From NCBI GenBank assembly GCA_963708185.1, contig OY970195.1, positions 512,001 through 576,000 on the forward strand: a DNA stretch of 64,000 nucleotides, read 5' to 3'. This DNA is from Candidatus Peregrinibacteria bacterium. Lineage in GTDB: Bacteria; Patescibacteriota; Gracilibacteria; UBA1369. This document shows positions 61,835 through 63,998 of the stretch, one piece after another; the first letter of the stretch is position 1; every line of letters begins with the position of its first letter. Below the pieces are notes generated by a model. It was not told the DNA's origin. It worked only from the letters and a program-made list of their open reading frames with translations, and ran no database searches. The position numbers were made by a program, and so were the translations under genes.

Positions 61835-62860
61835 TCACTGCACGACGGCTGCGCACGCGATCTGAGACTGGCTGTCTCCGACCGCCTCGTTGTCGATCAA
61901 CGAGTTGTTGTTGGCCGTACCGCGATCGATGAACTCGGACGAGCAGGACCCGGGGAGGCAGTTGCGGAGGTCCGCAGCCGCGTCCTGGAGGCCCTGCAAC
62001 CCAGCCACGTAGCTGAGGTTGTCCGGGTTCTGCCCGTGGTTCGCGGCCAACACGCTCTTCAGCGGGTTGTACCACTCGCACGGGTGATCGCCCGAGCAGG
62101 TGAGGACGTTGTTCGCACCGTACAGGACGGCGCAAACCACGGTCGTCCCGTCAGACGAGCTGACGATGACGGTCTGGCCGGGGGTGAACGAGCCGTCCGT
62201 GGTGAGCGAGGCGTCGACCCAGCCGAGCGTGCTGCTCGACAGGGACGGCTTCCACGTCACGTCCGTGCCACCCGAGCTGTTCGGGACGCAGGTCCCGCTC
62301 GAGCAGTAGTAGCCGCTCGAGCAGGCCGGGGTGCAGCTTCCGCTGCCGTTGGGAACGCACACGCCGTTTTCGCACGTGGTGCCGGATCCGCAGCTGTTGT
62401 TGCAGTTGCCGGAGCCGGAGACGCACTGCCCGTTCGAGCAGTAGGTTCCCGACCCGCAGCTTCCGCCGCAGGTGTCGCTGCCGGACCCGTTGCCGCCGGG
62501 TACGCAGTACCCGTTGTTGCAGATCGTTCCCGTTCCGCAGGTCACGGAACAGGAGCCGGTCGCCGGGCGGCAGGTGGCGGGAGACGAACTGCTGTCGCAG
62601 TACGTGCCCCCATCGCACATGTCGTTGCACGGATCGTTGCCGCTGAACTGGCACTTGTCGGTGAGCGTGTTGCAGACGGCGCCGTCGTGGCAAATGCCGT
62701 CGCATGCCGTGTTGCTTCCGCCGCCCGTACCGCTGCACGCGGGATCGCCGTTCAAACAATACGGTTGGTCGTTGGACGACCCGCCGCAGCCGACGGCCGC
62801 GAGCGCGGTGACGAGGGTGACGAAGATGGCGACACTGAGCTTCAGGTTGGTCTTGGTCAT
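61835..62860 (-). CDS. GC-rich Cys-rich repeat lipoprotein (CxxxC-x-x-G-x-x-C-x-x-G-x-C repeats + unknown C-terminal domain)
   Basis: Start ATG 62860 with GGAG 9 nt upstream; lipobox AVG-C; about six Cys repeats; sample lines 68-70% GC. Confidence 0.8.
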   Translation of the reverse strand: MTKTNLKLSVAIFVTLVTALAAVGCGGSSNDQPYCLNGDPACSGTGGGSNTACDGICHDGAVCNTLTDKCQFSGNDPCNDMCDGGTYCDSSSSPATCRPATGSCSVTCGTGTICNNGYCVPGGNGSGSDTCGGSCGSGTYCSNGQCVSGSGNCNNSCGSGTTCENGVCVPNGSGSCTPACSSGYYCSSGTCVPNSSGGTDVTWKPSLSSSTLGWVDASLTTDGSFTPGQTVIVSSSDGTTVVCAVLYGANNVLTCSGDHPCEWYNPLKSVLAANHGQNPDNLSYVAGLQGLQDAAADLRNCLPGSCSSEFIDRGTANNNSLIDNEAVGDSQSQIACAAVVQ

Positions 62861-63075
62861 GACTTGTTTCTCCAAACTGGGCTGAGGGCTTTGGGCCCCC
62901 CGAGGAATTTTGGGCTGTAGGGCCCTGGGTAGCACCACCATGGTGCGCCCCCGGTCCCTACTTCCTCGAAAGTTAGGGCCCGAATCCGACTGCTTTGCTG
63001 GCTGCGTCTATCTTCCACAAACGCAAAAACAAACAGGTTCGGACCCTGACTTTCTTGTTGAATAACCATTAAAAT

Positions 63076-63140
63076 CTTCTGCGAGTTTTCAAAGAACTGT
63101 GCTGATGCACCGCTTGCGAAAAGACGCAAAAATACATCAG
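63076..63140 (-). promoter_or_regulatory. boxB-like hairpin + boxA antitermination motif + leader arm of inverted repeat
   Basis: Minus strand CTGATG..CATCAG hairpin (63102..63140), then GTTCTTTGAAAACT (63084..63097) running into AAAACTCGCAGAAG. Confidence 0.65.
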
Positions 63141-63147
63141 GTCACGA

Positions 63148-63176
63148 ATGATACTATATTTTTGCTGTTTTGTCAA
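63148..63176 (-). promoter_or_regulatory. Sigma70 promoter
   Basis: Minus strand TTGACA-17 nt-TATCAT. Confidence 0.8.
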
Positions 63177-63259
63177 TACTCCTGAGAACAAAAATATCAT
63201 ACGAATTCGTCCGGTTTTCAGGCCGGAAAATGATAATGTTTTCAAGGGTTTTCCATTAC

Positions 63260-63300
63260 AAAAAAACCGCTGTCCCGAGTCAAAAACCGGAACAGCGGTC
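63260..63300 (-). terminator. Terminator of the normal-GC paralog
   Basis: Minus strand ACCGCTGT...ACAGCGGT + T tract, about 33 nt after the stop. Confidence 0.75.
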
Positions 63301-63332
63301 AAATCGCTCGTTCACCAGGTAAATTGGAAAAA

Positions 63333-63998
63333 TTAATGGGTTTCCACGATGCCGTCACTGGGAACGTCAGCGCAGTGGATGGCGACGTCCGTGTCTGCTA
63401 TCGGATCGTTTTCCTGCCAGCTCTGGTTGGAGCCCGCGGCGCGCCAGACAAAAGCGTTCGCCGGGCGGTATTGTTGAGGGGTCGTTCGGTAGCTGATGAG
63501 CTGCCCGGCCGCGTCTTTTGCGGCCTGTTGTGATGTTAAGTATGCCAAATCACCCGGGCTGTGGCCGGTTTGAGCCGCCAGAAAATTCGATTCAACATCC
63601 CACCATTCCCCGCTGCCGTTCATGGTTAAAATCGTGCCGCTGCCGTATCCGACAAAACAGACTGTCGCCGGGGTTTCGGTTTGATGAAACCAGACCGTGT
63701 TTCCCAAAGGGTAATTTGCTCCACCGTTGTTGATGGTCTCTATCCAGCCGTTTCCGGAACCTGCGTGCGCATTCTGCCAGGTGACTCCTGCAAAGGTATC
63801 ATGGGAAACCGGATCACATTTTTTGGTGTCGGGATTGCAGACCGTTCCTTTTCCGCAAAGATTGTCGCAAGGATCGTTGTTAGTGTCGGGAACACAGTGT
63901 TTTGTGGCTTCATCACAGTGTGTTCCACTGCCGCAATTATCACCGCAGACGTTCATTCCGGCATCGGAACCACCGTCTCCCAAGCTGTAAGGACCGTC
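63333..63998 (-). CDS. Cys-rich repeat protein, paralog of 61835..62860 (5' end beyond window)
   Basis: Frame open to window edge (DGPYSLGDGGSDAG..); shares NDPC, VTW, GW, VC.V.YG...LT, EW, LAA..G..P..L.Y...Q...DAA..L, final I.CA; sample lines 48-55% GC. Confidence 0.8.
   Translation of the reverse strand, partial: DGPYSLGDGGSDAGMNVCGDNCGSGTHCDEATKHCVPDTNNDPCDNLCGKGTVCNPDTKKCDPVSHDTFAGVTWQNAHAGSGNGWIETINNGGANYPLGNTVWFHQTETPATVCFVGYGSGTILTMNGSGEWWDVESNFLAAQTGHSPGDLAYLTSQQAAKDAAGQLISYRTTPQQYRPANAFVWRAAGSNQSWQENDPIADTDVAIHCADVPSDGIVETH

Follow-up and report, generated by a model that had tools for sequence, protein, structure and literature searches.

Why would two adjacent copies of one gene use their codons in such different ways? 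The question is raised by two minus-strand genes at the end of a 64,000-nt stretch of DNA from a Candidatus Peregrinibacteria bacterium (GenBank assembly GCA_963708185.1, contig OY970195.1, forward-strand positions 512,001 to 576,000; the whole stretch is hereafter called the window, and positions are counted from its first nucleotide). Gene A (61835..62860) encodes 341 aa and a stop codon; of gene B (63333..63998) the last 221 codons and the stop codon are visible, the 5′ end being located past the end of the window. An earlier interpretation of the DNA letters (the sequence-only reading) had described the two as tandem paralogs of a Cys-rich protein written in two codon styles, and suggested that the copy rich in guanine and cytosine (GC) might be tuned for expression in another organism. 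Our best reading is that the locus is a compositional island which is maintained and not imported. The earlier observation of two codon styles is confirmed, and conservation across genomes makes it stronger than it was first put.

The paralogy proposed in the sequence-only reading is borne out by the comparison of the two proteins, which are 30% identical over 226 columns (BLASTP E value of 2e-23) and collinear across a C-terminal domain; their Cys repeats also match each other, more weakly. In the list of open reading frames (ORFs) A extends from its first ATG over 61835..62941 on the minus strand. Translation more likely starts at the ATG at 62860, since GGAG stands in front of it and a signal peptide comes after it. 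From there the protein begins with M-T-K-T-N-L-K, continues with a hydrophobic stretch and reaches A-V-G-C, ending at Cys residue 25. A lipobox-containing signal is defined by a start of basic character, the hydrophobic stretch that comes next and a closing Cys, and, judged by inspection, A looks like a lipoprotein (a substrate of Lgt and Lsp). The remainder of A contains six C-x3-C-x5-C-x4-8-C units, with 33 Cys residues in the whole protein, whereas the visible part of B has two 4-Cys repeat units followed by the same C-terminal domain. A and B are thus tandem paralogs, predicted to be surface lipoproteins of a Peregrinibacteria-type bacterium of the candidate phyla radiation (CPR), each with a signal, a stalk made up of 4-Cys repeats and, at the C-terminus, a globular domain of ~145 aa, and the latter domain would be displayed at the cell surface on its stalk. 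An antisense ORF (61778..62920, 380 aa) was rejected as a gene, being a shadow of the frame of A with its GC-rich third codon positions (GC at first codon positions, GC1, of 0.85).

The GC content of the window is 50.4%, and the GC profile reaches 0.63–0.69 only over 61750–62950. A has a GC content of 65.8% (0.51, 0.59 and 0.875 at the three codon positions), and its GC content at third codon positions (GC3) is 0.897 when counted from the start at 62860. For B the values are 55.0% overall and 0.55, 0.51 and 0.58 by codon position; the earlier figure of 52% for B was a little low. A is the top GC3 outlier among 42 window genes. The next highest value is 0.756, and the other genes range from 0.54 to 0.76, apart from a low-GC cas12a fragment (0.30). 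Correction for amino acid composition leaves the difference between the two codon styles (0.90 in A and 0.58 in B) in place: the GC3 expected for each gene, given its amino acids and the way 28 background genes use their codons, is 0.678 for A against the observed 0.897 (z = 4.0, relative to the spread of those genes), and 0.672 for B against the observed 0.584 (z = −1.5). Within the shared domain codon positions one and two (GC1/GC2) are nearly alike, 0.56/0.50 in A versus 0.56/0.52 in B, and the excess of A over B lies only in GC3. The effective codon number (Nc) of A is 31.5, compared with 38–61 for the other genes. By its composition alone (GC3 of 0.90, z = 4), A is atypical in the way expected of a recently transferred island.

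Relatives of the pair were looked for in other genomes. Three of 43 candidate stretches retrieved in a genome scan encode one, and all three belong to metagenome-assembled genomes of Peregrinibacteria-type CPR bacteria. These loci are denoted L001 (a complete Ca. Peribacteria chromosome), L002 (a record titled Gracilibacteria) and L003 (Peregrinibacteria). In 3/3 of them, as in the window, the homolog adjoins a convergent gene for a pfkB-family kinase (60540..61484, plus strand, convergent with A in the window), which is 61–78% identical and serves as a synteny anchor in the four loci. The gene order in L001 is g1, g2, a B-type gene and an A-type gene. Of these, g1 (4421–5608) encodes a protein of 395 aa with a signal peptide, g2 encodes a Cys/Gly-rich lipoprotein of 820 aa, and the B-type gene (8612–9592), in which a lipobox is present, is a full-length ortholog of B. 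L002 and L003 each contain g1, g2 and a single A/B-family gene; no remnants of B were detected below an E value of 4 by tblastn in the gaps of these two loci. The single gene of L002 (10001–11096) changes frame after ~105 codons, owing to either an assembly error or pseudogenization, and has an extra C-terminal tail of ~70 aa, and that of L003 is broken by NN at 10424–10425. The lipobox Cys is found at the same place in the database proteins P0001–P0004, in the A- and B-type proteins of L001, in the products of the L002 and L003 genes and in the g2 proteins. Gene order and homology together identify A and B as the end of a conserved chromosomal cluster of putative envelope genes beside pfkB. 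What the window shows is the final gene and a half of this cluster, with g1 and g2 expected beyond base 64000.

The unusual composition is shared by the cluster in all these genomes, where it forms a patch of 63–70% GC amid flanks of 45–53% GC in 3/3 related loci. GC3 is 0.88–0.91 in g1, 0.68–0.79 in g2 and 0.87–0.98 in the A-position gene (C-terminal parts), compared with 0.51–0.62 in the flanking genes. B has a native GC3 in both genomes that have the gene (0.58 in the window and 0.55 in L001). The shift consists in a general loss of A/T-ending codons, both C and G endings being used. AAG accounts for 72 of 75 Lys codons in the pooled g1 genes against 38% in the background, GAG for 72% in cluster genes against 31%, and ACG, TCG and GCG are used at ~40%, 30% and 42%, respectively. 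The ratio C/(C+G) per four-fold degenerate family, cluster versus host, gave r = 0.32 (p = 0.44, n = 8), which supports neither acceptance nor rejection of the notion that the cluster uses the dialect of the host minus its A/T-ending codons. Spacers inside the cluster have a GC content of 0.45–0.60 against 0.39–0.49 outside, a far smaller shift than that of third positions. The composition effect is thus mostly one on the coding third positions of particular transcripts.

Such a pattern could be the trace of a single acquisition that has since been inherited passively, and the state of the synonymous sites bears on this directly. Third-base agreement at four-fold degenerate sites under identical residues was compared with that expected from independent draws from the base frequencies of the sequences themselves. 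Between the A genes of the window and L001, 45% of 98 such sites agree, with 44% expected, and in three pairs of g1 genes agreement is 38–48% against 39–45% expected. For pfkB of the window and L003 it is 53% against 28% expected, signal being kept in the closer pairs. The synonymous sites of the cluster are fully turned over, and a GC3 of ~0.9 has been retained in each lineage, which excludes passive retention. Moreover, since B is of native composition in both genomes, genes at this locus can and do decay towards the composition of the genome. The cluster genes have maintained their GC-rich dialect for long in four diverged genomes, and the composition is best read as actively maintained and not as the product of fresh gene transfer.

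A recently transferred island was therefore rejected as an explanation, given the same locus in 3/3 relatives, best homologs of 42–49% full-length identity and the lack of an adjacent mobility gene. The doubt that the sequence-only reading had cast on simple recent transfer is justified by the same identities and synteny, together with the synonymous saturation, and close donor homologs are lacking. No homolog was found among 50,697 phage and 72,556 plasmid records, and no mobility genes adjoin the cluster, the neighbours being pfkB and rml genes.

In the tree of the C-terminal domain, which the sequence-only reading had proposed to build, the A-type genes fall on one side (support 98/98), and the other side has the form (L003 gene, (L002 gene, (window B, (L001 B, P0007)))), with supports of 98/98, 97/95 and 93/92. 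The tree comprises 12 rows and is unrooted; a 17-row tree agrees with it. The native-GC clade of B appears nested among GC-rich genes that are located behind the leader described below, and one change on the stem of B would suffice to account for it.

The long leader of A, the Shine-Dalgarno (SD) site and the terminator 33 nt after the stop codon of B, all noticed in the sequence-only reading, are real features of the locus. A is preceded by a sigma-70-type promoter, TTGACA-17-TATCAT (63176..63148, minus strand), which has 11/12 matches to the consensus and is invariant in the four loci. It is followed by a conserved 5′ leader of ~288 nt (62861..63147, minus strand), AT-rich in its 5′ half and GC-rich and structured in its 3′ half, which contains the 13-nt box TCTTTGAAAACTC (63083..63095, minus strand) and, 9 nt before the ATG, the SD-like GGAG (62873..62870, minus strand). 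The DNA upstream of A is conserved in the four loci despite the fact that the proteins are only ~40–56% identical. The consensus fold of the leader (RNAalifold, four loci) has 67 pairs, seven of them compensatory, and 95.7% of cells are paired; none of 500 shuffles reaches the observed values, and slid controls give 32–46%. It should be noted that this fold comes from four sequences and that the structure was derived from the same alignment. Between the two genes, an intrinsic-terminator-like hairpin with a T run (63300..63265, minus strand) is predicted to split the transcript of B from that of A.

An equivalent arrangement is found in front of g1 in the related loci (3840–4420 in L001, 5185–5875 in L002 and 4890–5550 in L003), where a consensus promoter is followed by a conserved leader of 580–690 nt with 167 predicted pairs, 14 of them compensatory (RNAalifold, three sequences). 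The g1 leaders of L002 and L003 possess an extra module of ~100 nt that is not present in L001. The leaders of A and g1 have nothing in common except the −35 box and the 13-nt box, neither of which occurs elsewhere in the window or the loci, and this rules them out as copies of one RNA. Rfam 15 yielded no match at E≤1 in window positions 61400–64000 and none at E≤0.1 inside either leader of L001–L003, and ARAGORN found no tRNA or tmRNA.

SD-like tetramers were found at 7 of 10 starts of GC-rich cluster genes, compared with 3 of the 39 other window starts (Fisher p = 1.4e-4; orthologs were treated as independent and the starts are predicted). In the window itself, such a tetramer is located at −20 to −4 in 4/40 gene starts, including that of A, and in L001 none of the three candidate starts of B has one. 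The genome thus seems to initiate translation mostly without SD sites, as the sequence-only reading had noticed for a few starts. The ribosomal protein bS21 has been lost in Peregrinibacteria, according to passages of PMC9297842, which do not deal with the use of SD sites in that group. Near-consensus sigma-70 promoters are also found at rpsA and several other window genes, and the promoter type of the cluster is therefore native.

What, then, maintains the composition? An origin in a high-GC, SD-using donor such as a member of the Myxococcota, or the repeated replacement of cassettes from a GC-rich pool via the leaders as anchors, would let the composition be inherited, and the combination of GC-rich codons, SD sites, Cys-rich lipoproteins and a sub-cut-off MopE-like motif in g2 does look foreign. 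The nearest ESM Atlas clusters of g1 are commonest in Myxococcota (score of 0.85, a lead only), and the cluster genes are more diverged than the flanks, as replacement would give. Nevertheless, place and gene order are the same in four genomes, the promoter is of the genome's own type, the saturated synonymous sites with unchanged GC3 exclude passive retention, and B shows that genes at this locus decay to native composition. No large reservoir is visible either, the domain family being tiny (14 matches at E≤1e-3 among 1.84 billion representatives, a library without taxonomy), and the cluster lacks phage or plasmid matches and mobility genes beside it. We consider a foreign source distinctly unlikely. 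The proposal made in the sequence-only reading, that the GC-rich copy is adapted to being expressed by a high-GC host or is a mimic of host lipoproteins, fares worse and strikes us as barely credible. In its favour, SD sites and GC-rich codons set these genes off from the rest of the genome, a gene for a type IV coupling protein is present in the window, and CPR bacteria are thought to be episymbionts (PMC4736985). However, the promoter is of the same type as that of the genome's own rpsA, the lipoprotein signal is one for the envelope of the producer itself and the long leader is conserved in cis with the chromosome. There is no host homolog at useful identity, no homolog in the phage or plasmid collections, no mobile context and no evidence of DNA export.

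Two further explanations were weighed. Under ordinary translational selection A, g1 and g2 would be very highly expressed and use the optimal codons of the organism, which fits the consensus promoter, the low Nc of A, the way A exaggerates the genome's preference for C in most two-fold degenerate families, and the preference of rpsA for AAG (40/62). The dialect of rpsA is a different one, though: its GC3 is 0.585, it prefers GGT, GCT and ACC, ACG and TCG are each used 0 times out of 19 and GAA makes up 78%, whereas the cluster genes use ACG, TCG, GCG and GAG freely. With rpsA as the single reference gene for this comparison, codon usage of the cluster departs from the usual pattern of optimal codons in the organism, and we regard this explanation as very unlikely. 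A stronger case can be made for GC-biased gene conversion, in which G/C-biased repair would lift the third positions of fast-evolving, strain-variable and often recombining surface genes. The codon shift is generic, towards both C and G and not towards a single optimal codon per amino acid; divergence of the cluster genes exceeds that of the flanking pfkB, in protein sequence as well as at synonymous sites; and the GC content of the cluster spacers is 0.06–0.15 higher than outside. In Peribacteria, strain variation is concentrated in large Cys-rich extracellular proteins, according to passages of PMC4736985, and recombination hot spots in bacteria are GC-elevated, as cited in passages of PMC7360931. 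Against this, B is located between g2 and A and evolves at a similar rate (59% versus 56% identity between the window and L001), yet has a native GC3; the region includes the AT-rich half of each leader; the spacers stay far below the GC3 level; and in the domain that A and B share, GC1 and GC2 do not set the two genes apart. The GC3 shift of +0.3 also exceeds what gene conversion in bacteria is usually credited with. Altogether, gene conversion seems to us somewhat unlikely.

We tentatively favour, at a probability of about 40%, selection acting on these particular mRNAs as the force that maintains the composition. The GC-rich genes would be read from two expression modules, each consisting of a consensus promoter, a very long, conserved and structured leader and usually an SD-like site, and G/C-ending codons would be kept by selection on GC-rich, strongly folded, SD-initiated messages. 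Such selection could provide stability or tight riboregulation for envelope proteins, and the cause would then be neither transfer nor ordinary translational optimisation. Because the effect falls mainly on coding third positions, selection tied to the message is favoured over gene conversion. B lies outside the modules, shows none of their features and is set apart by its own terminator; since its clade is nested among GC-rich genes, it would most likely have relaxed to ordinary codon usage after leaving the module. A more far-reaching version, which is doubtful and which we think quite unlikely, is that the lineage runs a second expression dialect for a few envelope genes, characterized by consensus promoters, giant leaders (~290 and 580–690 nt), SD initiation and G/C-ending codons. 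The leaders would then be new riboregulators, responding for example to host contact or the state of the envelope, the GC-rich coding bodies would be part of the same mRNA-level control, and B would have reverted outside the module.

Several points weigh against selection on the message. It is deduced from sequence, and rpsA, the one canonical gene of high expression in view, has no raised GC3, so that a high level of expression cannot be the cause by itself. What ties GC3 to the modules is one evolutionary change (on the stem of B) and four related genomes, and the direction of that change is given by parsimony only, the tree being unrooted. The SD count treats orthologs as independent and relies on predicted starts. 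The non-coding parts of the cluster are somewhat GC-elevated, as a regional process would give, g2 is less extreme than the other GC-rich genes (GC3 of 0.68–0.79), and the A-position gene has a frameshift in L002 and is broken by NN in L003.

Atypical GC3 is routinely taken as a mark of recent transfer; here it outlasts full synonymous turnover in four genomes. With a native-GC paralog beside a GC3-rich gene, the locus is a clean example from nature of codon composition being maintained in particular genes, and the pair, which comes from an uncultivated lineage of the CPR, is suited to a direct test of selection on mRNA versus biased gene conversion. The rare domain with no known fold, the two leader RNAs and the use of SD sites in a few genes are further candidates for the cell-surface biology of these putative symbionts.

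Comparison with known systems sets the cluster apart from each of them. It resembles compositional islands from horizontal transfer in that GC content and codon usage are sharply off those of the genome, but differs in its constant locus in 3/3 relatives, in the lack of mobility genes and close donor homologs, in the saturated synonymous sites with GC3 kept, and in the native-GC paralog inside the patch. GC-biased gene conversion at recombining bacterial genes was reportedly described by Lassalle and colleagues in 2015; the gene-specific rise in GC3 and the generic shift from A/T to G/C are similar, whereas B and the AT-rich parts of the leaders are unaffected here. Gene transfer agent clusters, as treated in passages of PMC7360931, are likewise conserved chromosomal clusters that are GC-richer than the genome, but their excess resides in GC1 and GC2 with GC3 unchanged, whereas A differs from B only in GC3. 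The leaders and the GC-rich surface genes also have looser parallels. GC-rich surface-antigen loci are found in Borrelia (vls) and mycobacteria (PE_PGRS), and surface-layer (S-layer) genes have long stabilizing 5′ leaders. The likeness to these is by analogy only, the present locus having no silent cassettes or DNA repeats and no evidence of antigenic variation. No tandem repeat was found, and no repeat of at least 25 nt in 55000–64000 involves A or B, except for one 25-nt match internal to the Cys repeats. A and B as targets of a diversity-generating retroelement were ruled out, there being no pair of template and variable repeats and no reverse-transcriptase domain among 48 window proteins.

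The closest published counterparts are the Cys-rich proteins of Ca. Peribacter riflensis (Anantharaman et al. 2016, PMC4736985), which belong to the same phylum-level group, have a signal peptide or are lipoproteins, and have been proposed to function in attachment. According to passages of that paper, Peribacteria have an abundance of large extracellular proteins that are Cys-rich, vary between strains and bear a very weak likeness to Myxococcus repeats; strain variability and this weak likeness are common to those proteins and the A/B system. The Peribacter proteins average 1,655 aa, compared with ~320–340 aa for A and B, the words 'codon' and 'GC-rich' occur 0 times in the text of the paper, and the passages mention neither a GC3-rich style nor the C-terminal domain nor the leaders. 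From the architecture of A and B and these reports, a role in attachment or interaction at the cell surface may be inferred by analogy. In titles and opening lines of abstracts on such clusters and on gene conversion, no GC3-rich cluster retained over long times was described for CPR bacteria or Peregrinibacteria.

The sequence-only reading had also been reminded of myxobacterial lipoproteins, and the resemblance is weak. A and B match none of the Pfam families at E≤1, except for a chance-level match of B to CBM_14, and none of the NCBIfam families; membership of the Myxococcus Cys-rich repeat or MopE type was rejected, the PF11617 and NCBIfam repeat models being unmatched. Only g2 of L001 approaches the MopE motif (PF11617), with 26.8 bits and an E value of 6e-6, under the Pfam cut-off of 27. 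A word-indexed search of 5.8 billion proteins found five relatives of A. Four of these are 42–49% identical across 99% of A. The fifth, P0005, is 63% identical to the C-terminal 40% of A and has a different N-terminus without Cys repeats. An exhaustive HMMER search of the 1.84 billion representatives with a profile of the domain yielded 14 proteins at E≤1e-3, seven of them at E≤1e-30, and the C-terminal domain belongs to a very rare, undescribed family. Its members join the domain to varied N-terminal stalks composed of Cys repeats or of Thr-rich or Gly/Ser-rich linkers. An extended search with the partial B found nothing among 678 candidates.

Structure prediction, another step that the sequence-only reading had suggested, gave a confident model of the C-terminal domain alone (predicted local distance difference test score, pLDDT, of 94.7; predicted template modelling score, pTM, of 0.90; 17-row alignment), in which a beta-sheet is combined with three helices. 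The full-length AlphaFold model was poor (pLDDT of 53.5), and only the domain-only model was used. Foldseek searches with this model gave a best E value of 0.17 and a template modelling (TM) score of at most 0.35 against the PDB, and a best E value of 0.10 against BFVD. A profile search of PDB sequences gave a best E value of 0.55, and the best ESM Atlas score was 0.85, with no assignment. The predicted fold thus has no significant match in PDB or BFVD.

A few additional features of the cluster may be mentioned. A GC-rich palindromic hairpin of 12 bp (61733..61759) between the convergent A and pfkB is a possible two-way terminator. In the alignments, each of the two cluster promoters has the word TTTGTAAT ~65–75 nt upstream of its −35 box (about 63255–63262 in the window, and in L001–L003); this word could be a shared upstream element or a regulator site. 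The g1 protein of L001, like its orthologs in L002 and L003, has a middle part rich in Lys and Asp, and its C-terminal half is Gly-rich, resembles beta-strands and ends in a hydrophobic or aromatic residue. Its nearest ESM Atlas clusters (score of 0.85, again a lead only) include an outer-membrane beta-barrel family, besides the unnamed clusters commonest in Myxococcota. The lineage is usually thought to have no outer membrane, and a likeness of g1 to beta-barrels would be odd. The record of L002 is titled Gracilibacteria, yet the locus has long ORFs under translation table 11 and shares synteny with the loci of Peregrinibacteria.

Elsewhere in the window, the plus-strand ORF at 51858–52778 (307 aa, 33% GC, GC3 of 0.30) matches only the REC1 domain of Cas12a (PF18501, E value of 6e-21) and looks like a fragment of a foreign cas12a, not an intact gene. 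Two consecutive plus-strand ORFs (43102–43677 and 43704–46508) match successive parts of the N-terminal domain of UvrD helicases (profile positions 1–156 and 136–270), which suggests that 43102–46508 is a split or frameshifted gene for an AddA/UvrD-like helicase-nuclease. Finally, two paralogous proteins are encoded at 5397–6455 (plus strand) and 12151–13263 (minus strand), each with an N-terminal sigma-70 region 4 and a HARE-HTH domain.

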